From Patescibacteria group bacterium (lineage in GTDB: Bacteria; Patescibacteriota; Minisyncoccia; UBA6257; GWB1-50-10), in the NCBI GenBank assembly GCA_038065455.1, contig JBBTQX010000002.1, positions 32,001-96,000 on the forward strand: a stretch of DNA of 64,000 nucleotides, read 5' to 3'. A program made the position numbers and the translations under genes. Shown here piece after piece: positions 3,621 through 51,420 of the stretch (position 1 is the first letter of the stretch; each line of letters opens with the position of its first letter). Below the pieces are notes generated by a model. The model saw only the letters and a list, made by a program, of their open reading frames with translations. It had not been told where the DNA came from and did not search any database.

Positions 3621-3908
3621 ATGTATCCCGTTAGAGACATTTCTATGTATTACAATTACGTTTTAAGAAGCAAAAAAGATGGGAAATGGTATACTGGCTA
3701 CACGAATGATCTACGGAAGCGCTTTAGCCAGCACAATAGCGATAAATTCCCTCAATGGACCAAAAATCGGGGTCCTTTTGAAATCATATACTATGAAGCC
3801 TGCAAAGATCTGCAAGATGCAAGGTCGAGGGAATATTATCTAAAAACAGGAATGGGTAAACGTTATATCAAAAATAGGCTAAAGCGCTTCCTGTCTCTAA
3901 CGGGATGA
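3621..3908 (+). CDS. Stand-alone GIY-YIG endonuclease (UPF0213/YhbQ-like); alternative start at 3645
   Basis: YYNYVLRS...WYTGYTNDLRKRFSQHN...TKNRGPFEIIYYE...ARSREYYLKTGMGK; its TGA overlaps the next ATG (ATGA). Confidence 0.9.
   Translation: MYPVRDISMYYNYVLRSKKDGKWYTGYTNDLRKRFSQHNSDKFPQWTKNRGPFEIIYYEACKDLQDARSREYYLKTGMGKRYIKNRLKRFLSLTG
3625..3906 (+). mobile_element. Family A IR element, nuclease-carrying copy (A1)
   Basis: Perfect 15-bp IR ATCCCGTTAGAGACA (3625-3639) / TGTCTCTAACGGGAT (3892-3906) enclosing the GIY-YIG ORF; the same IR occurs at three other sites. Confidence 0.75.
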
Positions 3909-5149
3909 ACCTCAAAACCCGGCGAACTCTCTTTTACTTCTTCATTCTCATATTCGTCCTTGCGGGCGCTTATCTCCTCGCAACCGCCCAGGGGCTGGTC
4001 CTGGATTTCAAAAATCTGAAGATTACCGGCACTGGCGGGCTCTTTTTGAAGTACGTTCCGCCCGACGCGACTGTGGAATTGAACGGCAAAAAAACCGATG
4101 TTTCGCCCGGCCTCGTTTCGAGCGGAATTTTCATCTCTAAATTAATTCCCGACGAATACCGGGTAAAGATTTCAAAACCGGGCTTCTCTGCCTGGGAAAA
4201 GACACTCGCGGTTAAGAACGGCGCGGTGGCTTCGGCGAGCCAAATCAGGCTCTGGCCCGAAGTCTGGGATTTGAATGTCATTACGACGAGCTCCGTCCGG
4301 GATTTCCGGCTCACGGGTGCGGGTCTAGTACTCCAAGGAAAAAACGGAACTCTTCGGCTGGACGGATTTTCTTTGGGAAACAGGAGTGTCGCTTTGAGCG
4401 GGCCGGACTCGTCCCTCATCGTTACGACCGATGAAAAAGAAAATTTTGTAACCAATCTCGAAGATTTGTCACCCGCGCTCGATATCGTCCGGCTCTTTAA
4501 TTCGCTGAAACAAAGCCAGTTGAATCTTCCCGGCACGATCATTCCTAAAAATTACTTCCTTCATCCCTTTAACGCCAAAATTCTCATCACGACCGGAAAC
4601 GCGCTTTACTCGCTCGATATCAAAAGATTGAGACTTGAAAAACTGACCGATATGGCAGGAATTAAGAAGGCGGAATTAAGGGGAAACGAAATGTTTCTTT
4701 TCGATATGAAAGACAATATAACGACATTCAATCTTTTTCTCCAAACTGCCAGAATTTATGAATCGACCTCCACCGAAGCCATCGGAATAGGAGCGAGCCT
4801 GGCCGGCTTGCCGGCCCCCGACGGGAAAAAGATTTTTTTGCTTTCAAAAAACGACACGCTTTCTTTGAAAGTTTTGGAAAATTATTATGCCGACGGCGAA
4901 GTGAGAAAGGGCGATATGTGGCCCGTTTTTTCCGACCGGGGCAAAATAACGGATTTCAAATGGTTGAATGGCAATTCTAATTATGCGCTGGTACTTGCCG
5001 AAAAAAACTTGTTCATCGTTGAAACCGACCGGCGCACCCCGCAGAATATCCGACTCATATCCCAAGGAGTGGAAAAATTCGCGACGGAGGGAAACGATCT
5101 CTATATCCTCAAAACCGACGGCACGCTTCTGAGGGCGAGTTTGAAGTAG
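3905..5149 (+). CDS. Membrane-anchored PEGA-domain protein with a probable beta-propeller C-terminus
   Basis: N-terminal TM helix, then TGGLFLKYVPPDATVELNG...LIPDEYRVKISKPGFSAWEK (PEGA pattern). Confidence 0.7.
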   Translation: MNLKTRRTLFYFFILIFVLAGAYLLATAQGLVLDFKNLKITGTGGLFLKYVPPDATVELNGKKTDVSPGLVSSGIFISKLIPDEYRVKISKPGFSAWEKTLAVKNGAVASASQIRLWPEVWDLNVITTSSVRDFRLTGAGLVLQGKNGTLRLDGFSLGNRSVALSGPDSSLIVTTDEKENFVTNLEDLSPALDIVRLFNSLKQSQLNLPGTIIPKNYFLHPFNAKILITTGNALYSLDIKRLRLEKLTDMAGIKKAELRGNEMFLFDMKDNITTFNLFLQTARIYESTSTEAIGIGASLAGLPAPDGKKIFLLSKNDTLSLKVLENYYADGEVRKGDMWPVFSDRGKITDFKWLNGNSNYALVLAEKNLFIVETDRRTPQNIRLISQGVEKFATEGNDLYILKTDGTLLRASLK

Positions 5150-5159
5150 AAGACGAATT

Positions 5160-5528
5160 TTAAAAAATATCAGAGACTCTAGTCAGTGCAAGCCGATTCA
5201 TGACTTCATCGTCATAGTTATCCATATGGACACAGATGCAAAGTAAGACGATAACGGCGCCTTTTACTGCGAACCACATTCGGGGATACTGATTGGGTCT
5301 TAAATTATCATTAGGAACAACGAGTTCTACTTTCCATAAGGTCCAGATATCATTCTGCGTTACCCTGTGTAATTTTGCCGGGGCTATTATTTGCTTCGGA
5401 TTCTCCGGATTGAATTGAAATTCGCACAACCTCTTGAATGAATCTAAACCGTCTTTAAGATGACGAAATCGCCGCTCAAGGGCGGCGATTTCTTTTTCTA
5501 TGCCGTCATGATACAGAAATTCAATCAT
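5160..5528 (-). CDS. Putative toxin (RelE/ParE-like) paired with the Panacea antitoxin
   Basis: 122 aa; ATGA overlap with the upstream Panacea gene; LWKVELVV...YPRMWFAV...LLCICVH resembles the RelE-superfamily topology (inference). Confidence 0.55.
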   Translation of the reverse strand: MIEFLYHDGIEKEIAALERRFRHLKDGLDSFKRLCEFQFNPENPKQIIAPAKLHRVTQNDIWTLWKVELVVPNDNLRPNQYPRMWFAVKGAVIVLLCICVHMDNYDDEVMNRLALTRVSDIF

Positions 5529-6016
5529 AGGTCGCTGAAATCCGTACCGCGATAGAACGCGAGTTCATATGAAATATCCTCTCCCGGCTTCGTCCCAACA
5601 TATGGGGCCTCAGCATGGGAAAGTTCGCCAAGCTGTTTTCCATTCAATTGGCCGTATTTTATGGCAACGCGATCAAGCATTCTTCTTTCTTCGATATCTA
5701 ATATTAATTCATCCGGTTCCGCCAAAGAACTGTAAACCTCAATTGGATTATATCCATTTCCCAATTCGACGGCTTTGGCAAGAAGTATTTTTTTCTCGGA
5801 CATTTCCGATATAATTTTCTCAAAAGAGACTGGTACTGGCCCCATAGGAAGGGCTTTATATGTATCCCCAGTTATAGGTTTCTGATTCTTTTCGAAGAAA
5901 TCAAAATCAGCAAAATAAAGGAGTTTTGCTAGTTTTTTCTTCCCTTGGATTTCACCTCCTAATTTCTTACAGAGATATAGTATAACTTGCTGATATTTCT
6001 TCTTTTGGAGGGTCAT
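5525..6016 (-). CDS. Panacea (DUF4065/SocA-like) antitoxin
   Basis: KKLAKLLYFADF...PITGDTYKALPMGPVP...LGELSHAEAPY. Confidence 0.85.
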   Translation of the reverse strand: MTLQKKKYQQVILYLCKKLGGEIQGKKKLAKLLYFADFDFFEKNQKPITGDTYKALPMGPVPVSFEKIISEMSEKKILLAKAVELGNGYNPIEVYSSLAEPDELILDIEERRMLDRVAIKYGQLNGKQLGELSHAEAPYVGTKPGEDISYELAFYRGTDFSDL

Positions 6017-6133
6017 TTTACTTAACAGTATTATACCACAATAAAACTCAAAACAACAAGAAAATGGCTATCTGAATAGTAAAATGAAGACTTAACTTAA
6101 ATGTTTCAATGCTCCTTCTCAATGCAACAGTGG

Positions 6134-6160
6134 AAAAAAAATCCCCGAAGGGATTTTTTT
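6134..6160. terminator. Intrinsic terminator after rpsI (potentially bidirectional)
   Basis: AAAAAAAATCCC-CGAA-GGGATTTTTTT. Confidence 0.75.
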
Positions 6161-6611
6161 AACGCTTGCGCCACTGTTGCGGCCGTCTCGCTTTCCGCAG
6201 GCCGTATTTCTTGCGCTCCACCTTCCGGGGGTCGCGTTTCATAAAGCCGAGGGATTTCAATTTGGAACGCCAGGTGGGATTCAAAGCGACGAGGGCGCGA
6301 GACAAGCCGAGCCGGATGGCTTCTGCCTGGGAACTCAAGCCACCTCCTCCAACCAATGCCGTCGCGTGGTATTCCTTGAGCGAAAGCTCGCCGAAGGGAG
6401 CGAGGACGGTCTTCTGCAATTTCGCGGTCGGAAAATATTCGGAAAAGGGCAAATCATTCACGATAATCTCCGGAGTCTTGCTCGCCGCTTTGCGGCCGGA
6501 AAAAAGCCGGACGCGGGCGACCGCGGTCTTCCGGCGGCCGATAGCCTCGATATATTTATCCTTTTCCTTTTCAATTTTCTTCGCCGGATGGGCGGTTGTT
6601 TTCGAAGGCAT
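6159..6611 (-). CDS. rpsI: 30S ribosomal protein S9
   Basis: GRRKTAVARV, GGGLSSQAEAIRLG, RDPRKVERKKYGLRKAR; likely start MPSK at 6611. Confidence 0.97.
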   Translation of the reverse strand: MPSKTTAHPAKKIEKEKDKYIEAIGRRKTAVARVRLFSGRKAASKTPEIIVNDLPFSEYFPTAKLQKTVLAPFGELSLKEYHATALVGGGGLSSQAEAIRLGLSRALVALNPTWRSKLKSLGFMKRDPRKVERKKYGLRKARRPQQWRKR

Positions 6612-6612
6612 T

Positions 6613-6954
6613 TTATTTTTCGATAATGAGATTTTTAAGCCGTTTCGCATTCAGGCGGTTTTTGGGCAACATCAGGCGCACGGCGTGCCGGAGAACCCAG
6701 GCCGGATTCTTTTTGAAAACATCGGCGAATTTCCGCTCCTTGAGATGTCCCAGGGGGCCGGTGTGCTTATAATAAATCTTCTGATTGGTCTTCTTGCCGG
6801 AAACGGCGATTTGCGAAGCGTTCGTGACCAGTACCCGGTCGGTATTCATAAGCCGCGGATTATAATTCGGGCTCTTCTTACCTTGGAGCAAAAAAGCTAT
6901 CTCCGAGGAGAGCCGGCCTAATTTTTTGTTTTTCGCGTCGATTTGATGGTCCAT
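6613..6954 (-). CDS. rplM: 50S ribosomal protein L13 (short)
   Basis: IDAKNKKLGRLSSEIAFLLQGK, YYKHTG, AVRLMLPKN. Confidence 0.95.
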   Translation of the reverse strand: MDHQIDAKNKKLGRLSSEIAFLLQGKKSPNYNPRLMNTDRVLVTNASQIAVSGKKTNQKIYYKHTGPLGHLKERKFADVFKKNPAWVLRHAVRLMLPKNRLNAKRLKNLIIEK

Positions 6955-6955
6955 A

Positions 6956-7309
6956 TTATTTTACGAATTCGATGACGGCCATTTTGGAGCCGTCGTGCTT
7001 CCTCGGAGTAACCGTTTTTACCACCCGGGTGTATCCCCCTTTCCGCTCTTTATAGCGCGGGGCGATTTCGTGGTAAACCTTGTAGGCTGCCGCTTTCGGC
7101 AATTTCTCCAAAAGCAGTTTCATTCCGGCCAGATTTTGCTGTTTGCCGTAGGTGATATAGCGCTCCACGATGCCCTTCAATTCCTTGGCGCGCGCCTCGG
7201 TCGTCGTAATCTTTTCGTGGCTCACAAGGTTATTGGCCAGAATCCTCAAAAAAGACCTGCGAGGGCCTTTTTTCAAACCGAATTTTCTCCCCTTGTGCAT
7301 GTGCCGCAT
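6956..7309 (-). CDS. rplQ: 50S ribosomal protein L17
   Basis: MRH, ITTTEARAKEL, RKGGYTRVVK. Confidence 0.97.
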   Translation of the reverse strand: MRHMHKGRKFGLKKGPRRSFLRILANNLVSHEKITTTEARAKELKGIVERYITYGKQQNLAGMKLLLEKLPKAAAYKVYHEIAPRYKERKGGYTRVVKTVTPRKHDGSKMAVIEFVK

Positions 7310-8056
7310 TTATTTTTCTTTCTTTTTCTTTTCGGGTTTGCCGGAAATCAATTCCGCCGGAACTACTTCGATGGCCAGAACTTTGTCGAAATGGTCTTTC
7401 AAAATATTGCTCGCCTTGTGGAGCGCCTCCGAAGGGCTAATGGAGCCGTCGGTCTCTATTTCCAATTTCAAGCGGTTATAATCGGTGCGGTCGCCCACGC
7501 GCATATCTTCCGAGTGGAAGGATACCCGGACAACCGGGGAAAAGATGGCATCAAGCACGATCGTGCCGACCGAAAGCCTCTCCATCCGGCGGGATTCGCT
7601 CATCACGTAGCCCAAGCCCTTTTCGACGGTGATTTCCATATCCAAATCGGCGGACTTTTTCGAAAGAGTCGCGAGATGCAAATCCTTGTTGATTACCCGC
7701 ACGAGCGTGGAAGATTCGATATCCTCCGCCTTCACTTCCTTCTCGCCTTTCACGTGAAGTTTTAAAGTCTGCGGCTCATCGGCGGTAAAATGAAAGCGGA
7801 CTTTCTTCAGGTTCAACGTGAACTCCACGATATCCTCCACCATGCCGGGCAAAGTCGAAAATTCATGGTCTATATTCTTAATCTTAATCTGAGTAATAGC
7901 CGAACCCGGAAGCGAGGAAAGGAGCGCGCGCCGAAAAGCATTCCCCAAAGTGACGCCATAACCGGTAAAAAGACCTTCAATGTAAAAAACACCGATATTG
8001 TCCTTTTCGGAAATTTTCTTGACCTCGACCGCTTCGCTGATATGTGTATATTTCAT
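7310..8056 (-). CDS. rpoA: RNA polymerase alpha subunit, apparently lacking the alpha-CTD
   Basis: GYGVTLGNAFRRALLSSLPG, HEFSTLPG, DAIFSPV, RVGDRTDY; ends at 248 aa with a Lys-rich tail. Confidence 0.95.
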   Translation of the reverse strand: MKYTHISEAVEVKKISEKDNIGVFYIEGLFTGYGVTLGNAFRRALLSSLPGSAITQIKIKNIDHEFSTLPGMVEDIVEFTLNLKKVRFHFTADEPQTLKLHVKGEKEVKAEDIESSTLVRVINKDLHLATLSKKSADLDMEITVEKGLGYVMSESRRMERLSVGTIVLDAIFSPVVRVSFHSEDMRVGDRTDYNRLKLEIETDGSISPSEALHKASNILKDHFDKVLAIEVVPAELISGKPEKKKKEK

Positions 8057-8074
8057 TTTTTTGTTTTATAAAAT

Positions 8075-8674
8075 TTAACGCGAATAGAATTGGCCGACCA
8101 CGTTTATATCGAAAGGTAGTTGCACTCCGGTAACGGGCGGTTTTGCCACGCACTCGCCTTTCAATTCCTCCGCTTTGAGCTTAAGCCACTCAGGCGGGGT
8201 GTATTGCTTCAACCGGAGTTGAATATCATCGAAAATCTTCGCCGAGCGGGATTCGGGCCGCACAGCAATAATGTCTTTAACCCTAACATAATAGGAAGGA
8301 ATTGTCACTTTTCGGCCATTCACGTGGATATGGCCGTGGGAGACGAGCTGGCGGGCGATTCTCGGAGACTTCGCGAATCCCAAAAGAAAAACCACGTGGT
8401 CGAGGCGGCTTTCGAGCTTGGTCATAATGCCGTCTTTGTCGGAATTCCGGAACATTCTCATCATCTGATGATTATTCAGCCCGTAAAGAATTTGGATTTT
8501 CTGTTTTTCCTGGAGCTGCTTTCCGAATTCGGAAACGGAGTGGCGCGCCTGGCCGTGCTGGCCCGGGCGGTAAGGATGGCGTACCATCGCGCACTTCGGC
8601 GAATTACAGCGGTCTCCCTTGAGGAAGAGTTTGATGCCCAGCGATCTTTCTTTTTTCTCTTTGATTCTTTTCAT
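8075..8674 (-). CDS. rpsD: 30S ribosomal protein S4
   Basis: PGQHG, LQEKQK, LESRLD, ARQLVSHGH; likely start MKRIKE at 8674, and the ORF-track extension lies inside element A2. Confidence 0.96.
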   Translation of the reverse strand: MKRIKEKKERSLGIKLFLKGDRCNSPKCAMVRHPYRPGQHGQARHSVSEFGKQLQEKQKIQILYGLNNHQMMRMFRNSDKDGIMTKLESRLDHVVFLLGFAKSPRIARQLVSHGHIHVNGRKVTIPSYYVRVKDIIAVRPESRSAKIFDDIQLRLKQYTPPEWLKLKAEELKGECVAKPPVTGVQLPFDINVVGQFYSR

Positions 8675-8798
8675 CCCGTTTAGAGACAGGATACGCTTAA
8701 GAAGCATATCCGTGAAGCATTAGCCGATTCGACTTTATTGGATTCTATTGATTGTTTGATAATCATGTTATTCATAAGTTTGATGTCTCTAACGGGAT
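8673..8798 (-). mobile_element. Family A IR element, short copy (A2) at the rpsD start codon
   Basis: ATCCCGTTTAGAGACA (8673-8688, one extra T) / TGTCTCTAACGGGAT (8784-8798); internal hairpin GGATACGCTT-AAG-AAGCATATCC. Confidence 0.8.
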
Positions 8799-8808
8799 TC
8801 ATATTTTT

Positions 8809-8953
8809 ACCAGGCAGTGAAAATGCGATTGCAAATCGTGATTGAATCGACGATTCTCGCTATTTCCAATGACCTTTTATTTATATTCATATGTTTTGAT
8901 ATTATGATGGTTTTCGATTTGAATTCAATCTAATCGCATTTCTACTGCCTGGT
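8809..8953. mobile_element. Family B IR element, short copy (B1) directly after the rpsK stop
   Basis: ACCAGGCAGTGAAAATGCGATT (8809-8830) / AATCGCATTTCTACTGCCTGGT (8932-8953). Confidence 0.8.
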
Positions 8954-9402
8954 TAAACCCTTCTGGTCTTGGCCGGACGCGGTCCGTTGTGCGGAATCGG
9001 CGTCACATCCTTGATGGACAGTATATTCAAGCCCTTGCCGGCGAAAGAACGGATGGCGGAATCGCGGCCGCTACCCACGCCGCGCACGAAAATCTCCACG
9101 GTATTCGGGCCGGTCTTTTCCAATTTCTGGGCAATGGCTTCGGCGACTTTGGAAGACGCGAAAGGAGTCGCCTTCTTGGGTCCGGAAAATCCCAAAGAGC
9201 CAGCGGACATCCATGTAATCACGGCACCCTTATCGTCGGTTACGGTAATAATGGTGTTATTATAGGTGGCTTGAATATAGATACGGCCGTTTTCCCAGTG
9301 CTGTTTGGATGTGGACGAAGATTGCTTAGCCGGCGCCTTTTCGGCCGTCCCCGCTTCCTTCACCGCTTCGTCTTTGGTTTTTATGACTTTTTTCTTTCCC
9401 AT
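8953..9402 (-). CDS. rpsK: 30S ribosomal protein S11
   Basis: ATYNNTIIT, SAGSLGFSGPKKATPF, GVGSGRDSAIR, DVTPIPHNG. Confidence 0.97.
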   Translation of the reverse strand: MGKKKVIKTKDEAVKEAGTAEKAPAKQSSSTSKQHWENGRIYIQATYNNTIITVTDDKGAVITWMSAGSLGFSGPKKATPFASSKVAEAIAQKLEKTGPNTVEIFVRGVGSGRDSAIRSFAGKGLNILSIKDVTPIPHNGPRPAKTRRV

Positions 9403-9415
9403 TTGCCGATTATAT

Positions 9416-9450
9416 ATGAATTTTCGAGTCTACAGACGATGAAAATTCAT
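9416..9450. repeat. Hairpin upstream of rpsK
   Basis: ATGAATTTTC (9416-9425) / GAAAATTCAT (9441-9450), with an inner GTC/GAC pairing. Confidence 0.6.
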
Positions 9451-9464
9451 CCATAGAATCGAGC

Positions 9465-9563
9465 ACCCCGCCATCATCCCCGACTTGGAGCAGGATATTT
9501 TCTTTCATTATGATTTTCGTTATTTTATTGTTTTTCATATTTTTAGTGTAATGATGGCGGGGT
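9465..9563. repeat. IR-bounded AT-rich insert between rpsM and rpsK
   Basis: Perfect 13-bp IR ACCCCGCCATCAT (9465-9477) / ATGATGGCGGGGT (9551-9563). Confidence 0.75.
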
Positions 9564-9573
9564 AAGTGTTCCC

Positions 9574-9957
9574 TTATTTCAAATCGACTTTCCGCTTGCC
9601 ACTACCGGCCGTCTTCCTGACGTTGCCGCGCACCGTCCGGGAATTCGTTTTCGTCCGCTGGCCGCGCACCGGAAGCTTTCGCAAATGACGCACGCCGCGA
9701 TAGGCTTTAATATCTTTCAAGCGAGCGATGTTCTGTTTTATCACTTGCCGCAACTCTCCCTCAATCTTGTAGTTCTTCTCTATCATTGATTGGATGCGGT
9801 TCACCTCGTCCGGCGCCAAATCCTTCGCTCGTTTTTGGAGGTCGATTTTCGCGCCGACCAAAACCTTGGCGGCCAAGGTCGGGCCAATGCCGTAGATGTA
9901 GCCCAAGGCCACGTAGATTTTTTTGTTATCGGGTATGTTTACTCCGGCGATTCTCAT
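9574..9957 (-). CDS. rpsM: 30S ribosomal protein S13
   Basis: MRIAGVNIP, IYGIG, YRGVRH, LPVRGQRTKTNSRT. Confidence 0.97.
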   Translation of the reverse strand: MRIAGVNIPDNKKIYVALGYIYGIGPTLAAKVLVGAKIDLQKRAKDLAPDEVNRIQSMIEKNYKIEGELRQVIKQNIARLKDIKAYRGVRHLRKLPVRGQRTKTNSRTVRGNVRKTAGSGKRKVDLK

Positions 9958-9959
9958 AA

Positions 9960-10076
9960 TTATCCTTGTCTTTGTTTATGCCTCGGGTTCTTGGCACATA
10001 TGACGTAAACCCGCCCTTTTCGACGGACGGTCTTGCAAACGCTGCAGATTTTTTTTACCGATGCTCTGACTTTCAT
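9960..10076 (-). CDS. rpmJ: 50S ribosomal protein L36 (too short for the ORF track)
   Basis: Manual translation [38 protein letters not shown]. Confidence 0.97.
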
Positions 10077-10198
10077 CCCGTTAGAGACAGGATACGCTTA
10101 AAAAGCGCATCCGTGATATGTCGCTTGGTTTGATTATTCCGACCTGTTGGTTATTCATATTGATACATTATTCAAAATTTGTTTGTCTCTAACGGGAT
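10075..10198 (-). mobile_element. Family A IR element, short copy (A3) at the rpmJ start codon
   Basis: ATCCCGTTAGAGACA (10075-10089) / TGTCTCTAACGGGAT (10184-10198); internal hairpin with arms GGATACGCTT and AAGCGCATCC. Confidence 0.8.
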
Positions 10199-10208
10199 TC
10201 ATAAAACT

Positions 10209-10436
10209 TTACAATCTTCGCACGATTCGTCCCCGTTTGTCCAGGATGTTCGCCATCTCCACCATAACCCTGTCTCCGGGGATAACCCGGATGCGGTTGA
10301 TTTTAAGCTTGCCGGCGGGATGCGCTAAAATGTCTTTTTCTTCCCCGTTTTCAAGTTTGACCTTCACGCGGAAAAGCAAACCCGGCAGTGCCTCCACCGC
10401 TATTCCCTCAATCCTGACTAAAGGCGTATTTTCCAT
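10209..10436 (-). CDS. infA: Translation initiation factor IF-1
   Basis: IEGIAVEALPGLLFRV, ILAHPAGK, IRVIPGDRV, RGRIV; upstream of rpmJ. Confidence 0.93.
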   Translation of the reverse strand: MENTPLVRIEGIAVEALPGLLFRVKVKLENGEEKDILAHPAGKLKINRIRVIPGDRVMVEMANILDKRGRIVRRL

Positions 10437-10451
10437 TAACAAACAGAGTGA

Positions 10452-10480
10452 ATTTTAGACAAATACAGATTTTTTGTCAA
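10452..10480 (-). promoter_or_regulatory. Sigma70 promoter for the infA-rpmJ-rpsM cluster
   Basis: Minus strand TTGACA-17 bp-TAAAAT. Confidence 0.8.
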
Positions 10481-10513
10481 TTTTTTAATCTATAAATCGT
10501 CTTTAATATCAGT

Positions 10514-10555
10514 TGTGGATAACTATTGACGCTTATTCATGTAAGTCGTTATAAT
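10514..10555 (+). promoter_or_regulatory. Sigma70 promoter (+ strand) preceded by a DnaA-box match; points into the NYN 3' end
   Basis: TGTGGATAA (10514-10522), TTGACG (10526-10531)-18 bp-TATAAT (10550-10555). Confidence 0.7.
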
Positions 10556-10561
10556 GATAAT

Positions 10562-10642
10562 ACAGAATAACTTCTGTCCTGCCCGTGGATATGGGTTAAC
10601 TTTCCGCAAGACCTGATTCTCTTGAGTCAGGTTTTTGCTTTT
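10562..10642 (+). ncRNA. Candidate ~80-nt sRNA antisense to the NYN gene 3' end
   Basis: Consensus promoter upstream; two small hairpins; terminator AGACCTGATTC-TCTT-GAGTCAGGTTT plus a T-run, with G-U pairs forming on the + strand. Confidence 0.55.
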
Positions 10643-11306
10643 TAACCGCAATATACTTTTTTATGTCTTGAGCATTGATTTTATTATCAACTAGCTCTCC
10701 TAACGACGCATCAATATGCCCTCCTTTTATTAAAATTATCTTTTTCTTTTGTTTCTTTAAGAAACGGATAAGAGCGGCGAAATCGGCATCGGACGATAAT
10801 AGACAGAACGTATCATATGAATTGATGAGTCTTACGGAATCAACTGAAACCTCCACGTCAAAATTGCACTTCGGAATCAATATAAAATTCCCTCCCTTAT
10901 CAACATTTATCTTCCGCATTGTCTCGCTTTTTTCTTCGGAATCCAGATAATGCTTGATTTGCTGTATTGGTTTAGTGAAAACCCTAGACTTACCGAAAAT
11001 ATGTTCCGCGGCCCGTTTGAATCTTAAAGACCCTGGATTAACAGGGTCGTGTCCATAATAAAAACGATCATCGCTGGAAAACGCGCTCAAGAAATCTTTT
11101 AATTTTTGCAGACCAATCGTTAACAACTCATTATCTGCCATTTTCACTCCGCTCTCATCAAAATCATCTTCATCAAACCAATGATTGACGTTCGCAAAAT
11201 CAATGAATGAGATAATGTTCGGATACCTGTCCGGTAAGATATCAAGATTTTTTCTTATTTGATCTTTTTTAAGTTCTTCCAAATCCATTTTAATTTTCTC
11301 CTTCAA
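10596..11306 (-). CDS. NYN (PIN-like, LabA/DUF88) domain nuclease
   Basis: FIDFANV, KCNFDVEVSVD, LLSSDADFAALI acidic catalytic motifs. Confidence 0.85.
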   Translation of the reverse strand: MKEKIKMDLEELKKDQIRKNLDILPDRYPNIISFIDFANVNHWFDEDDFDESGVKMADNELLTIGLQKLKDFLSAFSSDDRFYYGHDPVNPGSLRFKRAAEHIFGKSRVFTKPIQQIKHYLDSEEKSETMRKINVDKGGNFILIPKCNFDVEVSVDSVRLINSYDTFCLLSSDADFAALIRFLKKQKKKIILIKGGHIDASLGELVDNKINAQDIKKYIAVKKQKPDSRESGLAES

Positions 11307-43022: not shown

Positions 43023-43046
43023 CTTACTTATCTATTATACATCAAA

Positions 43047-43166: not shown

Positions 43167-43198
43167 ATATTTATATTATCTCCTTAAGATAACACGCC

Positions 43199-43555: not shown

Positions 43556-43627
43556 TTACGATTACTTGGATTATGCGAGATTTTCTTCAAAAAATAACCC
43601 GCTCGCGGGTTATTTTATTTTTCCGTC

Positions 43628-43822: not shown

Positions 43823-43856
43823 TTTCTGGAATTATACCATAGCTGATGCGTGTTCG

Positions 43857-44162: not shown

Positions 44163-44185
44163 ATATTTAATTATACTCCTTTTTT

Positions 44186-45640: not shown

Positions 45641-45642
45641 TT

Positions 45643-45956
45643 ACCAGGCAGTAGAAATTCGACTATTTGTGGTTTTTATCATAAAAGTATTCTTTGAGCA
45701 TGCGCTTTAGCAATCTGGCACCTTGGCTCGTCTTCAGATATTGCTCTCTTCTTGTTGCGTCCCTTGAATTCAAGTATGCCTCATAGTGTATCAATATCCA
45801 AGGTGCTTTTTTCTGGTTGAATAGCTCTTTTTGCGATTATGTTCTTTGAATCTTCTCTTTAAATCATTGGTATAGCCTATATACAACGAATTGTCTTTTA
45901 GACTCCGGAGAATGTAGATATAGAACATAATCGCGGTCGAATTTTCACTGCCTGGT
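45643..45956 (-). mobile_element. Family B IR element, nuclease-carrying copy (B3)
   Basis: ACCAGGCAGTAGAAATTCGAC (45643-45663) / GTCGAATTTTCACTGCCTGGT (45936-45956) enclosing a GIY-YIG gene. Confidence 0.78.
45663..45928 (-). pseudogene. GIY-YIG endonuclease split by a -1 frameshift at A_AAA_AAG (pseudogene, recoded gene or assembly error)
   Basis: Frame 0: MFYIYILRSLKDNSLYIGYTNDLKRRFKEHNRKKSYSTRKK; the -1 frame continues APWILIHYEAYLNSRDATRREQYLKTSQGARLLKRMLKEYFYDKNHK*; not in the ORF track. Confidence 0.85.
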
Positions 45957-45961
45957 GAAGT

Positions 45962-46477
45962 TTATTTTAAAGCGCCGATTTCTTTCAGGAACGATTCGAA
46001 TATATTCAGTATTTCTTTCGCTTCGCTTTCTTTTATTTCAAAGCCGGCCGTGTGCACCAAATCGTTTCGGATGCGATGGGCCCGCCAAAGATTTTCCAAG
46101 GTTTTCAGTTCCTTCGGGTTGAGCTTCTGGAGCTTGTCGGCGATATGCTCCCCTTCCAAACCCAGATCGTCGAGCGCTTCGCCCACCAGATTGTCAGCCG
46201 CCATTATCGCGAGCGTAAAAGAATGAGGCGGAGCGGAATGGGCCTTTTCCAATATCTTTTCCCAAACCTTCGCGTATCTTTCCGTATCGAATTCGCTTTG
46301 GGCGGCTTCCGTTCCTTCTTCTTTTTTCTTTCTCAGCGAACTGATTAAATCGGGGCGGTATTTGAGCGCCTTACGAAGTACAATAAAAAAACCAACCAGA
46401 AAAACGACGTCCAAAATAATGAATATGGTGCGAGCGGTGTAATAAAATCCCTCCAATTTTCCGAAAAAATCAGCCAT
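45962..46477 (-). CDS. Conserved single-TM hypothetical protein
   Basis: TM, W..I, LAIMAADNL, GEHIADKL, LWRAHRIRNDLVH (HEPN-like RxxxxH). Confidence 0.7.
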   Translation of the reverse strand: MADFFGKLEGFYYTARTIFIILDVVFLVGFFIVLRKALKYRPDLISSLRKKKEEGTEAAQSEFDTERYAKVWEKILEKAHSAPPHSFTLAIMAADNLVGEALDDLGLEGEHIADKLQKLNPKELKTLENLWRAHRIRNDLVHTAGFEIKESEAKEILNIFESFLKEIGALK

Positions 46478-47896
46478 TTATTTGTATCTTTCCAATTCTT
46501 CTTCTTCCCCGAAAATTGGTAATCCCGAAGGCGGACCAGCCCGCTTGCTCTCAAGATGTTTCAAATGGGGTTCGGTAAGCACAGTTGAAGTCGGAATATG
46601 GAAAAGCGTAGCGAGGCACTTCGTATTCATAATGAAACGCTTGGAAGTAGTATTCCAATTAAAAAGATAGGAGGTGAGCATTCTGCCGATGAGCGTTTCG
46701 ACCGGTACTTCGCGCTTCCGGTAATTTAAAAGCATCCTGGCTTTTCGGAACTCAAGCCGGGTACCGGGGAAAACGTAGGGTTTTTTCCAAATCATTGTTC
46801 TGGTGGCCACTCCATTATTTTGGCCGAAAGAATTCATATCCAAGTTGGAATATTGATTGAAAGCGCCCACGATACCTTTGCGGGGAAAATTATCGGAAAA
46901 GGTTTTTTTATTCGAGAAGTATACAAAACGTATCAAGGTGTTGAAGGCGGGCTTCGAAAGATTTTCTTCCACGGCCTTCAAAACATCGGCTTGGCCGGGC
47001 GAACGCATCATAGCCATTTCATACTCTTCGTTTCCGCCCGTAGGCAATGCGCGACCCTTCACCTTCCTCGTTTGCGGCTCTCTTAATTTTTTTAAATCGT
47101 CCTCCCATTTATCGTCCCAATTCTCCGAGCCGGCCGGAGCGATAAGGAACTGAATGCCGACGATTTCCGTCTTCTTCAATTTTCCCAGAATTTCCAAAAA
47201 AGATGAAATAGGGTCAAAACTTTTTTCCTCGGCTTCGTTCTCAAAATCGGTGTAGGTTTTTATCGGATACATATCGTCTTTTTTGAGTGTCATTTCGGTG
47301 CCCCACATATCCAAGTCTTTTTCGTAAACCTCATAAACCTTGTCGGGCAACTGGTCGACATAATCCGGCACCTCGACGATATCCAAGCCGGGATAATAAG
47401 AGAAGAAAGCCGCCTCTATCAAGTTTCTCAACTTGGCGTAACACCGAATATAGAGATGGATCTCGCCGCCGAAGCTGACCATTTCAAGCGAATACCATCG
47501 GGGCACTTCGCCGTCCCAATATTTTTCGCGAATATCATCCGGCGCATTCCTTAAGGAATGGAATGCCGCTAAAACCTGCTCCATTGCCTGAGAACTCTTT
47601 TCGATGAGGCGAGGTATCCTAAGCTCGAGAAAAACCCATTTAATATCAGTCTTAAATATCTCCTGGCGCCAATGAAGCCAGGTCTCGAGAAAAAGTCGGA
47701 AAATTACGATGAAAAACCATAGCCACCAAGTCCGTTTCAAAAAATCAATTACGACCGTGCCGAGAACGGAGGGAGCAACAAGGGGTACGACGAGCGCCCC
47801 GGCCGCGCCGGAAATGAAGAGTATCCACCAGGTCTCTTCTTTGCTGAACGCCTCTTCGAGAAAAGAGCCGAGCTCCTTCAAAAAATTACCTAACAT
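46478..47896 (-). CDS. Conserved membrane protein upstream of the ATPase pair
   Basis: N-terminal TMs, LELRIPR, AMEQV, SLEMVS, YPIKTY, LATLFHIP, PPSGLP. Confidence 0.75.
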   Translation of the reverse strand: MLGNFLKELGSFLEEAFSKEETWWILFISGAAGALVVPLVAPSVLGTVVIDFLKRTWWLWFFIVIFRLFLETWLHWRQEIFKTDIKWVFLELRIPRLIEKSSQAMEQVLAAFHSLRNAPDDIREKYWDGEVPRWYSLEMVSFGGEIHLYIRCYAKLRNLIEAAFFSYYPGLDIVEVPDYVDQLPDKVYEVYEKDLDMWGTEMTLKKDDMYPIKTYTDFENEAEEKSFDPISSFLEILGKLKKTEIVGIQFLIAPAGSENWDDKWEDDLKKLREPQTRKVKGRALPTGGNEEYEMAMMRSPGQADVLKAVEENLSKPAFNTLIRFVYFSNKKTFSDNFPRKGIVGAFNQYSNLDMNSFGQNNGVATRTMIWKKPYVFPGTRLEFRKARMLLNYRKREVPVETLIGRMLTSYLFNWNTTSKRFIMNTKCLATLFHIPTSTVLTEPHLKHLESKRAGPPSGLPIFGEEEELERYK

Positions 47897-47932
47897 TGAT
47901 TTCTTTTTATTTTACCTTATTAGAGAAATAAC

Positions 47933-47966
47933 AAAAACCCCGCCAATCCATAGACTGGCGGGGTTT
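47933..47966 (-). terminator. Intrinsic terminator
   Basis: Stem CCCGCCA...TGGCGGG next to an A-run on the + strand (U-tract on the minus strand). Confidence 0.65.
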
Positions 47967-47978
47967 CCGAACATTGGC

Positions 47979-48998
47979 TTAGGCCTCGCGAACCTGGTAT
48001 TTACCGCTATCCAATCGCTTGAAATACCGGCGATTTTGGAGATTAAGAAGAATGGTATTCTCCTTGAGAAGGCGCTGTTCGTTCACGAGACGCACCACCG
48101 TCGCGGATTCCAAAGAACCGTGTTTTTTCAGGAGCCGAGCGATGACCTCCCGCACCGTACCGGGTTCGTAGCCTTTTTCCTTCAGGGCATAAACGCCGCG
48201 CCCGACGAGAACGAAGCGATTGTCCTTGATGAGCTCGTTGTGCACTGTTTGAACGTGCGCCGGTTTCTTATCCAAACCGAACTTGTTGATATTCTTCGCG
48301 ATATCCCCGAAATGAAGAGGCCGTTCGTGTTTCTTCAAAACCAGATAAACTTTGTCGCGGATCGTCTTAGGCTCGATCTCGGGCCATTCTTTCAAACCGA
48401 AATCGCCGAAGATGTTCGTGCCAAAATGTTTCGGGATGGAAAGAAGATGGGCGGAAACCAAATCTTTCATATGATTCAAATAAAGTTTCTTGTTTAAAAT
48501 TTCTTCCTTCTTGCCGGACTTCAGGAAATTTGTGACCGTCTTTATGAAATCATGGAATTTTTCTTTGGATTTTTCATCGGAGAACCAGAAGGCTTGCGCG
48601 TTGTCGTCGTTCTTCGAATAAGAGGGTACACCCGCCACGAGAAGAATGAAGCGCAGTTTCTGGTCGGCGTGCTTCACATCCGCTCCAATCTCAAGGCCGT
48701 GAATAAGGTCGTTCATAAAATTGTCGTCGCGCTTCACGCCGCCCACACCCGCCAGGTGCTTCCTGGCATAATCCAAAATGACCGCCGCTTCTTCTTTTAC
48801 CTTCTTCGAAAGTTTTTTAATCGCCTGCTCCTCTATCTGGCGCACCCGCTCGCGGGTGATTTTGAGTTCATCGCCGATGAATTGGAGTGTCGAGCGCTCG
48901 CCGGTCTTCAAACCGAAACGGCCGACAATCACCCGGCGCTGTTTGGGGCTGAAATCGGCGAGAAGATTATCTATTAATTGGTCGAGATTTTGTTTCAT
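47979..48998 (-). CDS. Sigma70 region-4-like HTH plus C-terminal HARE-HTH-like protein
   Basis: RFGL...TLQFIGDELKITRERVRQIE; PLHFGDIA, TVHNELIKDNRFVLVGRGVYALKE. Confidence 0.8.
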   Translation of the reverse strand: MKQNLDQLIDNLLADFSPKQRRVIVGRFGLKTGERSTLQFIGDELKITRERVRQIEEQAIKKLSKKVKEEAAVILDYARKHLAGVGGVKRDDNFMNDLIHGLEIGADVKHADQKLRFILLVAGVPSYSKNDDNAQAFWFSDEKSKEKFHDFIKTVTNFLKSGKKEEILNKKLYLNHMKDLVSAHLLSIPKHFGTNIFGDFGLKEWPEIEPKTIRDKVYLVLKKHERPLHFGDIAKNINKFGLDKKPAHVQTVHNELIKDNRFVLVGRGVYALKEKGYEPGTVREVIARLLKKHGSLESATVVRLVNEQRLLKENTILLNLQNRRYFKRLDSGKYQVREA

Positions 48999-49041
48999 AT
49001 TTTAATGATGATAACGATAGCATAATGGTTTTACGGTGTCA

Positions 49042-49111
49042 ACCAGGTAGTGAAAATTCGGCCGCTTCGCACAGTCTGCCTTTGGCAGAAGCCGAATTTC
49101 TACTACCTGGT
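49042..49111. mobile_element. Family B IR element, minimal copy (B4) after secF
   Basis: ACCAGGTAGTGAAAATTCGGC / GCCGAATTTCTACTACCTGGT; TCAA direct repeat at both ends; inner hairpin TCTGCC-TTT-GGCAGA. Confidence 0.8.
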
Positions 49112-49126
49112 CAATCCCCCATCAGA

Positions 49127-50017
49127 CTATTTTTTCTGCCAAAGATACAACAGCGGGCTGGCCACGAATATGGAGGAATAGGTCCCGAAAACCGTTCCCA
49201 CGAGAATAGTGAGAATGAAGAAGAATATGGAAGCCGGGCCGAAAATAAGCAGGGTCACGAGCACAATAACGAGTGTGAGCGTGGTGTTTATGGAACGGGC
49301 CATGGTTTCGTTCACGCTGAAATTAATGATTTCGCCCAAGTCGAATCTTTTGCCTCGATTCAAAGTCAGGTTCTCCCGAATGCGGTCGAAGACCACGATG
49401 GTGTCATGGACGGAAAAACCCATCACGACAAGCAGTGCCACGATGAAATTCGTGTCTATTTCAATTCCTTTCCAGTGTCCCAAAATGGCCAAAAGGCCGG
49501 CCGGGATACTCACGTCGTGCAGGAGTGTCAAAAGAGTTACGATACCATACTTCCAAGATTTGACCGGTTCCGAAACCTTTCGGAAAGCCCAAGCAATGAA
49601 AAGCGATATACCGAACATTACGAGCGCCACGGCCCAAATGGATTTATTTTTGAGTTCCGAACCGATAGCCGGACCGATCGAGGAGTAACTTTTTTCGGAT
49701 ACCTCGCCGAATTCTTTTGCGAGCTCTTCCTTATAGTTCCGCCTCTGCTCTTCGCTCAAGCTCGGCAGGCGAACAAGGAAAGTTCCGTCATCGGAACTCT
49801 TCACGCTCACTGTACTTCCCTCTCCCGCCGTTTTTTGCAAAGCCTCCTTGATCGCCGTTTCGGTCACATCGCTCTTTCCAAAACTCATCTGCCATTCCGT
49901 GCCGCCTTTAAGGTCAATGCCGGGCCGGAGGCCGAAGATTATAATGAGCGCCCAAGCCGCGACAACCATAAGTCCAGAGAATCCTAAAAAGTAATTTTTA
50001 TTCGCTATCAGATTCAT
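49127..50017 (-). CDS. secF: Protein translocase subunit SecF
   Basis: GIDLKGG, IGPAIGSEL, LLHDV, GFSVHDTIVVFDRIRE, RSINT, YSSIFVASP. Confidence 0.95.
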   Translation of the reverse strand: MNLIANKNYFLGFSGLMVVAAWALIIIFGLRPGIDLKGGTEWQMSFGKSDVTETAIKEALQKTAGEGSTVSVKSSDDGTFLVRLPSLSEEQRRNYKEELAKEFGEVSEKSYSSIGPAIGSELKNKSIWAVALVMFGISLFIAWAFRKVSEPVKSWKYGIVTLLTLLHDVSIPAGLLAILGHWKGIEIDTNFIVALLVVMGFSVHDTIVVFDRIRENLTLNRGKRFDLGEIINFSVNETMARSINTTLTLVIVLVTLLIFGPASIFFFILTILVGTVFGTYSSIFVASPLLYLWQKK

Positions 50018-50140
50018 CCCGTTAGAGATAGGATACGCTTAACAAGCGTATCCGTGATATTTTTGTTTGTTCGACTGATTTTGATTGTTTTGATTTTATG
50101 GAAGTCATATTATTTATACTTTGAAAATCTCTAACGGGAT
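50016..50140 (-). mobile_element. Family A IR element, short copy (A4) between secD and secF
   Basis: ATCCCGTTAGAGAT (50016-50029) / ATCTCTAACGGGAT (50127-50140); ATGAAT direct repeat on the coding strand; supplies the secD stop codon. Confidence 0.82.
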
Positions 50141-51420
50141 TCATTATCTTCAACAGATTTATTATCTTGACCAATAAATATCCGAAGCATTGTGCGCGTG
50201 ATGGTAATAGCCGAGAACATACTGATCAAAACTCCGATTAAAAGTGTAAGAGCAAAACCGCGCACGAAACTCGAAGTGAAATAATAAAGGACGGTCGCTG
50301 TAATAATGGTCGAGATATTGGAATCCCGGATGGAGGTCCAAGCCCGTCGGAAACCCTCTTCAATGGCGGAATAGTGGGATAATCCCTTTTTAAGTTCTTC
50401 CTTCGTCCTTTCGAAAACGAGAATATTCGCGTCCACCGCCATACCAATAGACAGAATGAAGCCAGCGATACCCGAAAGAGTCATCGTTATGGGAACGATT
50501 TTGAAGATTGCGAGCGTCAAAGCCACGTACATTAAAAGCGCGAAAGCGGCGAATACTCCCAAACCGCGGTAATAAATAATCATAAAAAGGAGGATCGCGA
50601 GCGTTCCGACAATGCCCGCGAAAACGGCCTTATCGAAGGCTTCCTTTCCGAAATCGGGGCTTACTGTCCGCTGATTCACGAGTGTAATCGGCGCGGGCAA
50701 AGCTCCCGCGTTGAATCTTTCCGCGAGCTGGCGAGCCGTATCGACGGTAAAATTTCCGCTGATTTGAGCCTTGCCGCCCGTGATTTTCTGCTGGACCGTC
50801 GGCATCTCAATCAATTGATTATCCAAAAATATAGCGAGCGGCTTTCCTACATTCTTTCCGGTCAGATCGGCGAAAATTTCCGCTCCTGCGCTCGAAAAAG
50901 TGAGGTCTACTTGGGGCTGGCGCGTCACGGAATCAAAACTTATCTGCGCGCTCACAACATAACGGCCATTCAATTCCGTTGGAATAAATTGAACAGTGGA
51001 ACTCGCCTCAAGCGAACCCGTTGCGGGAGCGATTACTTCGCGAAAATCCAAAAAAGGCGTAGCACCAATCTCTTTAATAGCCTCATCGATATCCTTTATT
51101 CCGGCCAACTCCACCGCCAGCCTGGTCGATTCTCCTGCTTTCTCGACGAAAACTCGCGGTTCGCTCACTCCGAATAAATTGACGCGCTTTTCGATGACAT
51201 CCCTGAGACCACTGACCACCGAATCCCGATCGGCGAAACCGACTTTCGAGAGATCCACTTCATACGTCAAAAGACTGCCGCCGGCCAAATCCAGGCCGAA
51301 GTTCCAGGGCCGGAAGGAGCTTATTTTCTGCCACAAGGGTTCGTAGGAAAAAACAGCGGCGAAGGCGGCTACCGCCACGAGAAGAATCAATACTGCTACC
51401 AGTCGCTTCTTGGAAATCAT
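50131..51420 (-). CDS. secD: Protein translocase subunit SecD
   Basis: GLDLAGG, RVNLFGVSEP, AGALPAP, IGMAVDANILVFER, IRDSN, VRGFA. Confidence 0.95.
   Translation of the reverse strand: MISKKRLVAVLILLVAVAAFAAVFSYEPLWQKISSFRPWNFGLDLAGGSLLTYEVDLSKVGFADRDSVVSGLRDVIEKRVNLFGVSEPRVFVEKAGESTRLAVELAGIKDIDEAIKEIGATPFLDFREVIAPATGSLEASSTVQFIPTELNGRYVVSAQISFDSVTRQPQVDLTFSSAGAEIFADLTGKNVGKPLAIFLDNQLIEMPTVQQKITGGKAQISGNFTVDTARQLAERFNAGALPAPITLVNQRTVSPDFGKEAFDKAVFAGIVGTLAILLFMIIYYRGLGVFAAFALLMYVALTLAIFKIVPITMTLSGIAGFILSIGMAVDANILVFERTKEELKKGLSHYSAIEEGFRRAWTSIRDSNISTIITATVLYYFTSSFVRGFALTLLIGVLISMFSAITITRTMLRIFIGQDNKSVEDNESR

Follow-up and report, generated by a model that had tools for sequence, protein, structure and literature searches.

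What places a short inverted-repeat sequence immediately before the start codons of unrelated genes, always in the same orientation? This question is raised by a 64,000-nucleotide (nt) stretch of a Patescibacteria group bacterium (GenBank assembly GCA_038065455.1, contig JBBTQX010000002.1, positions 32,001 to 96,000), referred to here as the window, in which four copies of an element termed family A lie at the starts of four genes. These copies belong to a mobile element that is built in a new way and habitually occupies start codons, and its construction, 4-base-pair (bp) target duplication, empty sites, orientation, recent movement and distribution can be read directly from the genomes compared. 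It is considered likely, with some real room for doubt, that family A represents very small mobile DNA elements whose autonomous form encodes only a GIY-YIG nuclease and which insert into TGAA at ATGAA gene starts. This supports, on the whole, the interpretation given in a preliminary description of the window, with three refinements: the duplication measures 4 bp, the start-codon rule holds for the long copies only, and a subtype with C...G ends lies mostly away from gene starts.

The arm sequence CCCGTTAGAGA is matched seven times in the window when up to one mismatch is allowed (all seven matches are exact), versus 0.84 expected, and none of 100 shuffled sequences reached seven. The matches pair into four inverted-repeat elements, in which the eighth arm, at rpsD, has one extra A. 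Read on the coding strand, each copy has the layout ATG(A/T)AT-CCCGTTAGAGA...TCTCTA(A)ACGGG-ATGAA, the second ATG being the start of the host gene. A motif scan and a reading of the sequence confirmed this previously described layout in every point, as well as the same orientation relative to the host gene in 4/4 copies and the exact 6-nt ATGAAT repeat flanking the secF copy. Among the host names proposed earlier, rpsD (Pfam Ribosomal_S4 match from residue 4), rpmJ (Ribosomal_L36, residues 1–38) and secF (SecD_SecF_C) are backed by Pfam, while the PEGA match of the fourth host is weak and falls below the cut-off (E 6.2e-4, 20.1 bits vs. 20.8). The copy at this last gene is full length and reads ATGTAT-CCCG...CGGG-ATGAAC. 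Its nuclease frame has an internal ATG at 3645 and ends with a TGA (3906–3908) overlapping the host ATG (3905–3907), which itself combines the last A of the element with TG from the right-hand TGAA. The three remaining copies are miniatures of 120–122 bp with no gene inside. The earlier remark that KRFLSL of the nuclease recurs as KRILSL in the short copies fits the data, as the nuclease copy and the miniatures share the last 22–26 nt of the right end at 87–95% identity, with no similarity found in their interiors.

The same position is maintained across the source genome of the window (G000; 654 kb in 10 contigs, with elements labelled by contig and position, e.g., C8 28387). Pairing of the arms yielded 25 repeat pairs, 24 of which were taken as real and one (C4 123185) was judged to be a chance pair. 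The 24 elements comprise two full-length copies (278 bp), 17 miniatures of 109–139 bp and five shorter members, namely three GC-rich ones of 66–72 bp and two tiny ones of 30 and 40 bp. Each of the 19 copies of at least 109 bp immediately precedes an ATG from which a reading frame of 38–1207 amino acids begins, and the same element end always faces the gene. Pfam matches at E <= 1e-5 were obtained for 18 of these 19 host genes, and many of them begin within residues 1–13, which indicates that these host proteins truly begin at the ATG following the element. The matched hosts are S4 (rpsD), L36 (rpmJ), S18 (rpsR), LeuRS (leuS), a class I Trp/Tyr-tRNA synthetase, SSB (ssb), RpoC (rpoC), RecR and SMC (smc), together with FtsH (ftsH), SecF (secF), a penicillin-binding protein transpeptidase, iPGM, ribulose-phosphate epimerase, an AI-2E transporter, a GT2 glycosyltransferase, a GFO-like oxidoreductase and a TraG-like ATPase. 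The claim that family A always inserts at a start codon thus stands for the 19 long copies and fails for three of the five short members (30, 40 and 70 bp), which lie clearly away from gene starts; the 66- and 72-bp members abut GTG/ATG codons and are ambiguous. One copy (C4 39414) is found at ATCAA and the two tiny ones at TAAA. As a separate observation, the 72-bp GC-rich member (G000:C8:43685–43756) makes up, with six flank bases, 78 nt without a stop in the frame of the downstream open reading frame (ORF), and it may add 26 residues to the downstream protein instead of preceding it.

Relatives of the nuclease are numerous. A database search returned 3343 at E <= 1e-3, counted as database clusters, most of the best being 94–95 residues long with an MNPVRD start and a KRFLSLTG end, and 249 of 401 sampled genomes of the host phylum carry a match at E <= 1e-10. 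When one genome per species was scanned, at least 542 related loci were recovered; the best 80 of them, from many lineages, have the repeat pair in 80/80 cases and consist of the repeats and one ORF only. Seventy-six of these could be analysed, after removal of two at locus edges, one with N and one without a pair at full-length spacing. T...A ends characterize 53 of the 76, among which 50 abut an ATG (45 of these open at least 80 codons) and 41 have TGAA as right flank, whereas only 4 of the 17 loci with C...G ends abut a start codon; hence, the start-codon habit goes with the T...A form. According to our cross-tabulation, the 10 analysable loci in metagenome-assembled genomes (MAGs) labelled as other phyla (Clostridia, Nitrospirota, Omnitrophota, Planctomycetota, Elusimicrobiota, Desulfobacteraceae and Ratteibacteria) comprise nine C...G loci, one other and no T...A locus, and the T...A form, among the loci analysed, occurs only in MAGs labelled Patescibacteria, candidate division (e.g., Terrybacteria, Saccharibacteria) or 'bacterium'. 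Miniatures with family A repeats were found in 13 of 41 genomes, G000 included, and 32 of 35 retrieved from 10 of these relatives sit on an ATG/GTG that opens at least 37 codons, with the stem-loop end toward the gene. Therefore, placement relative to start codons is not random among the long copies of G000, the miniatures of its relatives or the T...A full-length loci. A link between the C...G subtype and stop codons was considered and dropped, as 6 of the 17 loci have an ORF of at least 60 amino acids ending within 9 nt of the left repeat, at varied spacing. Viral contigs of IMG/VR contained no exact repeat pair at full-length spacing, and phage records yielded only distant GIY-YIG genes, with less than 40% identity and none covering 80% of the query.

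Comparison with a sister genome of the same genus (G004; 378,758 bases, 85% complete, 72–95% DNA identity across alignable flanks) reveals the sites before insertion. Its whole sequence contains no family A repeat pair and only five chance-like half-sites with one mismatch. Two flank alignments on a single contig were obtained for 16 of the 24 elements, and the element was missing in 16/16; at five of these sites (rpmJ, C4 4794, C4 8390, C6 7388 and C6 11635), the flank alignments overlap by 5–7 nt. The empty site is a single ATGAA where the source genome reads ATGAA-T-[CCCG...CGGG]-ATGAA, as is clean at rpmJ (TTTT-ATGAA-AGTC), while secD and secF are 23 nt apart with one ATGAA between them. 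The full-length copy is absent from the orthologous site, where the corresponding gene begins ATGGAACTC without any element, and the rpsD miniature is absent both from the sister genome and from contigs of a related strain. Such contigs, in 4/4 public sequencing runs (one of them an RNA library), join position 10071 to 10198 at rpmJ and thereby skip exactly 126 nt with five shared letters; they differ at 10–14 other positions per 200–270 nt and so come from a related strain. Empty sites with a single ATGAA, as expected from the preliminary description, are therefore real. One contig of the RNA library joins a family A element to the reverse-complemented upstream flank of the C4 68603 copy, a match made by eye that does not show transcription. 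At the rpsR start, where G000 has a miniature (C6:6782), the sister genome carries a 79-nt spacer without repeats that resembles, by eye, a miniature interior (ATGAATAATAATCAGTCGAAT...) and may be a decayed family A copy.

These sites also bear on the view that family A is not mobile at all and instead constitutes an ancient conserved leader motif common to many genes. Such a motif would account for the uniform position ahead of many genes, but it is already contradicted by the empty sites of a sister genome of such close flank identity, and it is also opposed by the 4-bp duplications, the identical copies at unrelated genes and the patchy occurrence among relatives. Its probability is considered negligible.

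Regarding the duplication, two models look alike at ATGAA sites, namely a 5-bp duplication with an extra T, or a 4-bp duplication (TGAA) of an element with T...A ends. The informative cases favour the latter. At C8 43685, the empty site of the sister genome is GTGAA and the filled one GTGAA-T...A-TGAA, so that the right-hand ATG is new. Seven of the 76 full-length loci elsewhere show an exact 4-nt repeat with a different fifth base; GTGAA becomes ATGAA at three loci (L112, L115 and L142), and at another with C...G ends (L084) the sequence ATGAA-C...G-TGAA turns the host start into GTG. An exact 4-nt repeat is present in 32 of the 53 T...A loci. With T...A ends and a TGAA duplication, it is the element that supplies the A of the rebuilt start codon. 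The notion that insertion duplicates the start codon is consequently correct in that the host ATG is rebuilt, and incorrect in that only TGAA is duplicated. Moreover, the miniatures at two different genes (that of the TraG-like ATPase and rpoC) show 100% identity across 121 nt, and the two full copies (that of the window and G000:C8:28387–28664) are identical at 277 of 278 positions, which points to recent movement, the gene-less form included.

The autonomous form measures 271–283 bp, and a single frame for a nuclease of 87–95 residues spans the whole of it. The inverted-repeat arms are themselves coding, with CCC GTT AGA GAy read as PVRD and TCT CTA ACG GGA as SLTG; thus, the MNPVRD and KRFLSLTG termini of the database proteins are ATG AAT plus the translated left repeat and the translated right repeat, respectively. 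The perfect repeat, with the outer pair counted, extends over 13–14 bp in 56 of the 76 loci, and the 12-nt arms are identical in 64. Arm positions 10–12 co-vary (GAT/GAT in 33 loci, GAC/GAC in 28, GCC/GCC in five, GAA/GAA in three, three singletons and four discordant loci), altering the encoded N- and C-terminal residues jointly, e.g., PVRA with LALTG. These paired changes indicate selection on repeat complementarity itself, over and above the protein. In 54/76 loci, the nuclease frame is closed by the TGA belonging to the right-hand TGAA, which overlaps the host ATG as ATGA, and in six by TAA from a TAAA target. At the other end, a start codon in the flank is in frame with the nuclease in 26/76 loci, and in 14 of these no other start precedes the GIY motif, so that the nuclease can be made there only from a host-derived ATG or GTG. 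The proposal that the elements capture the translation-initiation context of their hosts is supported by these counts.

Taken together with the duplication, this arrangement suggests how insertion could proceed. With a single orientation, the element would insert into the TGAA within a gene start of the form ATGAA and duplicate these four bases; its last base, A, and the right TGAA copy would restore the host ATG, while the host's own A and the left TGAA copy would form an ATG in the host initiation context, able to start the nuclease. The right copy would also provide the nuclease with a TGA stop overlapping the host ATG, and the host gene would then be translated by termination–reinitiation. 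Miniatures would be mobilised in trans. Translational coupling of this kind may well operate, as judged from the reading frames. What the miniatures have in common with the full copy is limited to the repeats, some 14 nt on the left (judged by eye) and 22–26 nt on the right. In 20/52 miniatures (11/17 in G000 and 9/35 in relatives), a frame entered at the upstream ATG meets no stop until the last 12 nt of the element, as opposed to 1/52 and 0/52 for the other frames. Open-frame miniatures typically stop at a TAA in the right repeat, 4 nt ahead of the host ATG, and the rpsD miniature of the window is likewise open up to a TAA within its right arm. This fits selection for termination–reinitiation in many copies.

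The single ORF of the 278-bp copy has GIY-YIG (PF01541; 59.1 bits vs. a cut-off of 22.6, residues 9–76) as its only Pfam match above the curated cut-off. Residues Y13, Y24, G26, R34, H38, E71 and N85 are invariant in 26/26 aligned homologues, which have 25 invariant columns in total, and Y13, Y24, R34, H38, E71 and N85 are presumably the equivalents of the two catalytic Tyr and the Arg, His, Glu and Asn of I-TevI. A profile search of the PDB returned 1zg2 (UPF0213 protein BH0048; 3.1e-12), 1ywl (EF2693; 2.1e-6) and the SLX1 homologue 7wme (2.6e-3). An AlphaFold model with a predicted local distance difference test (pLDDT) value of 84 gave the same picture in Foldseek, where 1zg2 came first, followed by Slx1 chains (TM ~0.6, query-normalised); 1zg2 and Slx1 chains occupy ranks 1–11, I-TevI appears at rank 24 and UvrC at rank 38. 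Therefore, the nuclease belongs to the UPF0213/Slx1 (URI-type) branch and is nearer to it than to I-TevI or UvrC. It probably forms a homodimer according to the modelling, in which the pair scored 0.74 vs. 0.00 for the best of three controls, the runs agreed on at least 93% of contacts and the partner had a pLDDT of at least 78. A score of 0.74 was reached by 20/30 proteins solved as same-chain pairs and 1/23 single chains, counts that are only rough given the custom alignment. The modelled interface involves residues 55–63, 65–66, 69–70, 86–90 and 93.

As the only protein of the autonomous form, this nuclease may be the mobility enzyme. The repeats would pair into a stem, at whose base the nuclease might cut in a structure-specific manner, with subsequent sealing by host ligase or repair; this guess is favoured because Slx1 cuts branched DNA, as the titles of the matched entries state. 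A more ambitious proposal, which is attractive and held only tentatively, is that family A stands for a new class of prokaryotic transposon, whose sole protein is a dimeric Slx1-like GIY-YIG nuclease cutting at the stem base, and for which the start codon is an evolved landing pad where essential genes are held hostage against imprecise deletion; related forms may live in tRNA or rRNA genes. According to this proposal, non-palindromic 4-nt TGAA ends would fix the orientation, host ligase would seal the DNA, and one 4-bp duplication would build the start of the element, its stop and the new start of the host.

Several points weigh against family A as a TGAA-directed element moved by its own nuclease. 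GIY-YIG enzymes hydrolyse DNA, and the characterised ones leave 1–2-nt 3' overhangs; to our knowledge, they do not perform strand transfer, and a 4-bp duplication is not predicted by their chemistry. Apart from the GIY-YIG elements, the source genome encodes further enzymes of mobile elements, namely two Y1_Tnp and three rve proteins, all matched above curated cut-offs. As to the duplication, 21 of the 53 T...A loci lack an exact 4-nt repeat, including the full copy of the window (TGTA vs. TGAA) and C8 28387 (one T short), and a few copies have TTCA instead of TGAA on the left. Early stops interrupt the upstream frame in 32/52 miniatures, so coupling is not general. Furthermore, the copies are related to one another, and hence their counts are not independent and overstate the evidence, while the orientation of the relatives' miniatures was set by the longer downstream ORF, a procedure that favours ORF finding, with a start codon in the opposite flank in only 3/35. 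Finally, ATGAA is far from specific to gene starts: a census that rests on crude gene calls counted 2201 such sites in G000, of which 153 lie at called starts, 189 between genes and 1859 within coding sequence. Sequence alone cannot separate start codons from the ~2000 other ATGAA sites and so does not account for the start-codon restriction.

The first two of these points invite the explanation that another enzyme, a Y1 transposase of the IS200/RAYT-like type or a DDE transposase, acts in trans, the GIY-YIG protein being cargo or, like TnpB in IS605, a nuclease that maintains the element by cutting the sites it has left. Joining of DNA is not known for hydrolytic nucleases, and the miniatures possess a conserved subterminal stem-loop, a hallmark of Y1 substrates. 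However, the best 80 of the at least 542 related loci carry the repeats with a single ORF and nothing else across many lineages, the repeats and the protein termini co-vary, and a second repeat family (family B, described below) carries its own GIY-YIG gene. IS200/IS605 elements lack terminal inverted repeats and target duplications, and a genome-wide motif scan located no good family A repeat near the Y1 genes, whose flanks were not directly inspected. A maintenance nuclease would, in addition, have to cut every empty ATGAA, i.e., it would hit ~2200 sites. An enzyme acting in trans is accordingly regarded as unlikely.

Extended target recognition was ruled out as a cause of the start-codon restriction, since the profile of 64 start-site flanks shows only A-T-G-A-A conserved and no information at positions outside it. 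Two explanations stay, insertion guided by something beyond sequence or faster loss of copies elsewhere. An extreme form of the second holds that insertion occurs at any TGAA/TNAA and that survival does the rest: copies within genes are lethal, those in spacers are deleted, and those at essential starts are both tolerated, as the ATG is rebuilt, and protected. The conservation of ATGAA alone speaks for it, as do the members outside starts (C4 39414, the two tiny copies and the 13 other loci among the 17 with C...G ends), the TCAA or TTAA flanks of family B and the essential nature of many hosts. Even if every coding insertion were purged, though, only ~45% of copies would be expected at starts versus the 19/19 observed, which corresponds to ~0.45^19 under an independence that is not strictly valid here; moreover, the youngest pair, with 100% identity, and both full copies are all at starts, and the orientation is uniform. 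Survival as the only cause is thus possible, yet rather doubtful. For the self-encoded TGAA-directed element, the restriction would instead combine a preference for TGAA with better survival or expression of copies at gene starts, where autonomous copies would need the host initiation signals and copies on essential start codons could not be deleted imprecisely.

The repeats may also act in RNA. Beside the right repeat, the miniatures have a stem-loop of 7–10 bp whose sequence varies by lineage and whose pairing, on our reading of the folds, is kept in ~45/52 by compensatory changes. Predicted RNA folds are closed by the repeat stem, with z = -5.6 (the rpmJ copy) and -7.8. Hence, the stem could be a processing or splicing signal, the elements being akin to intervening sequences and the copies at starts acting as leader cassettes. 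The GIY-YIG proteins found in rRNA genes of the Candidate Phyla Radiation are reported to be all encoded by intervening sequences unlike group I/II introns and seem to stand outside homing spread (PMC11270868), which is in line with this possibility. So is a locus in a relative (L003; G010:C36, 1460–1680), where a complete tRNA-Leu(CAG) lies between two repeats of the family A type and the whole unit sits in the apparent anticodon-loop region of another class II tRNA gene; once the unit is deleted in silico, a tRNA is called again, although none of the deletion variants is clean. On the other hand, the outer tRNA is not called by the intron mode of ARAGORN, no Rfam family reached the gathering score anywhere in the window (the region 8600–10300 gave only chance-level hits, with no group I or II intron), and the host protein of a start-codon copy is made without any need to remove the element. 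Movement at the DNA level is evident from the empty sites, from the duplications and from identical copies found at genes that are unrelated. An RNA-level role as the explanation of family A is therefore improbable. Judging from the tRNA locus, the element is nevertheless apparently able to transport cargo and might reside within RNA genes.

Among known systems, bacterial MITEs (miniature inverted-repeat transposable elements), e.g., the Correia/NEMIS elements of Neisseria, share with family A the terminal inverted repeats, a short duplication and many non-autonomous copies of 100–150 bp, and they are co-transcribed with their neighbours, with repeats that can pair in RNA. Terminal inverted repeats, target duplication, multiple copies and empty sites in relatives thus place family A with transposons of the insertion sequence (IS)/MITE type. 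However, known MITEs derive from DDE or other established transposases, while the parent of family A is a GIY-YIG frame that spans the element and takes its start and stop from the duplicated target; Pfam revealed no DDE, DEDD, serine, tyrosine, HUH or Cas1 enzyme inside the autonomous copy. We know of no MITE that inserts in a fixed orientation exactly on start codons. IS200/IS605 elements and their palindrome-associated miniatures are similar in their very small size, oriented insertion beside a fixed sequence of 4–5 nt, subterminal stem-loops and a likely role of single-stranded or folded DNA. Nevertheless, they depend on a Y1 HUH transposase and have neither terminal inverted repeats nor a duplication, whereas family A has both and no Y1 gene inside, the Y1_Tnp genes of the source genome lying elsewhere. 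Rickettsia palindromic elements, too, are short repeats tolerated in or at the edge of essential genes with survival of the reading frame, but they insert into coding regions without shifting the frame, and no parent gene is known for them, unlike family A, which precedes the start codon and has an autonomous parent.

The free-standing GIY-YIG homing genes of T4-like phages (seg, mob) are comparable as selfish genes that encode only a nuclease, lie between host genes and use host expression signals. Homing endonucleases, however, recognise long targets and spread by break repair through flanking homology, without terminal repeats, duplication or miniatures, whereas family A has repeats of 13–14 bp, a 4-bp duplication, a 5-nt target as the only conserved flank positions and dozens of gene-less copies at unrelated genes. 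Its nuclease also differs from the phage enzymes in being of the UPF0213/Slx1 type without a separate DNA-binding domain. Closest in sequence and fold are Slx1 and the UPF0213 proteins BH0048 and EF2693. Slx1, which has a RING domain and works with Slx4 as its partner, is a structure-specific nuclease of cellular DNA repair. No function has been assigned to the UPF0213 proteins, and neither these nor Slx1 have been described within a repeat-bounded mobile element. A search of openly accessible full-text literature found no description of repeat-bounded GIY-YIG elements or of MITEs that target start codons.

Because a transposon's class is set by its enzyme, an element bounded by repeats and encoding only a GIY-YIG nuclease of ~90 residues would, if true, add a class; family A would also rank among the smallest autonomous mobile elements known and would give a function to the widespread small GIY-YIG proteins of the UPF0213/COG2827 type. 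Its economy of design is unusual, as the repeats are translated, the start and stop come from the duplicated target and the host ATG is rebuilt by the last base. From a practical viewpoint, these insertions mislead gene callers in Candidate Phyla Radiation genomes, where upstream ATGs are fused to host genes and the nuclease is annotated as 'excinuclease ABC subunit C'. Furthermore, essential genes (rpoC, ssb and ribosomal protein genes) tolerate 120–280 extra bases at the start codon, which bears on translation initiation in these bacteria.

Table. Positions of family A copies, their host genes and related features in the window, and of other mobile-element genes in the source genome (G000, contig:position).
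Feature	Position	Strand	Remarks
Full-length family A element	3626–3905 with outer T...A pair; CCCG...CGGG 3627–3904	+	278 bp; left arm from 3626, right arm to 3905
GIY-YIG nuclease frame	3621–3908	+	From flanking ATG 3621–3623; 95 amino acids; Pfam GIY-YIG E 5.5e-16
Host gene of full-length copy	3905–5149	+	414 amino acids; weak PEGA-like match
Family A miniature at rpsD start	8674–8797; CCCG-to-CGGG 8675–8796	-	122 bp; extra A in right arm; left flank ATGAAT 8802–8797; host ATG 8674–8672 (reads ATGAAA); rpsD 8075–8674
Family A miniature at rpmJ start	10076–10197; CCCG-to-CGGG 10077–10196	-	120 bp; left flank ATGAAT 10202–10197; host ATG 10076–10074 (reads ATGAAA); rpmJ 9960–10076
Family A miniature at secF start	50017–50139; CCCG-to-CGGG 50018–50138	-	121 bp; left flank ATGAAT 50144–50139; host ATG 50017–50015 (reads ATGAAT); secF 49127–50017
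Family B miniature	8810–8952		Directly follows rpsK stop; family A miniature on rpsD start
Family B element	45644–45955		312 bp; frameshifted small GIY-YIG gene, homologous to that of family A; Pfam match 45803–45928, minus strand
Y1_Tnp genes	G000:C3:12877–13119; C10:7617–7847		Open frames of 235 and 248 amino acids
rve-domain genes	G000:C7:50720; C8:61088; C8:81804		Two with identical scores

The second element family mentioned above, family B, has the repeat CCAGGCAGT(G/A)(A/G)AAAT... and is present as 18 repeat pairs in the whole genome, flanked for example by TCAA...TCAA or TTAA...TTAA. A stop codon directly adjoins only six of these copies, and about 10 are found 1–11 nt upstream of a start; the former hint at, without establishing, a role as the 'stop-codon' counterpart of family A. 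Two more small GIY-YIG genes of the source genome (G000:C7:26543–26761 and C8:92151–92357) had no flanking inverted repeat in a scripted search, and the latter lies among GC-rich hairpin-like sequence.

Other variable stretches of the window deserve mention. Between positions 5145 and 6150, contigs in 2/4 runs skip 1004 nt and carry 23 other letters, a difference in gene content between co-occurring strains. Just upstream of the full family A copy, the window has a 74-bp element (3536–3609) whose 17-nt inverted repeat (TATACCCGGTATTACAA) is perfect; the sister genome lacks this stretch at the corresponding site. Lastly, the 171 nt at 9403–9573, between a gene ending at 9402 and the next one, are skipped by related-strain contigs in 4/4 runs; they contain a perfect 13-nt inverted repeat (9465–9477 and 9551–9563), parts of them recur elsewhere in relatives, and they probably represent a further miniature family.

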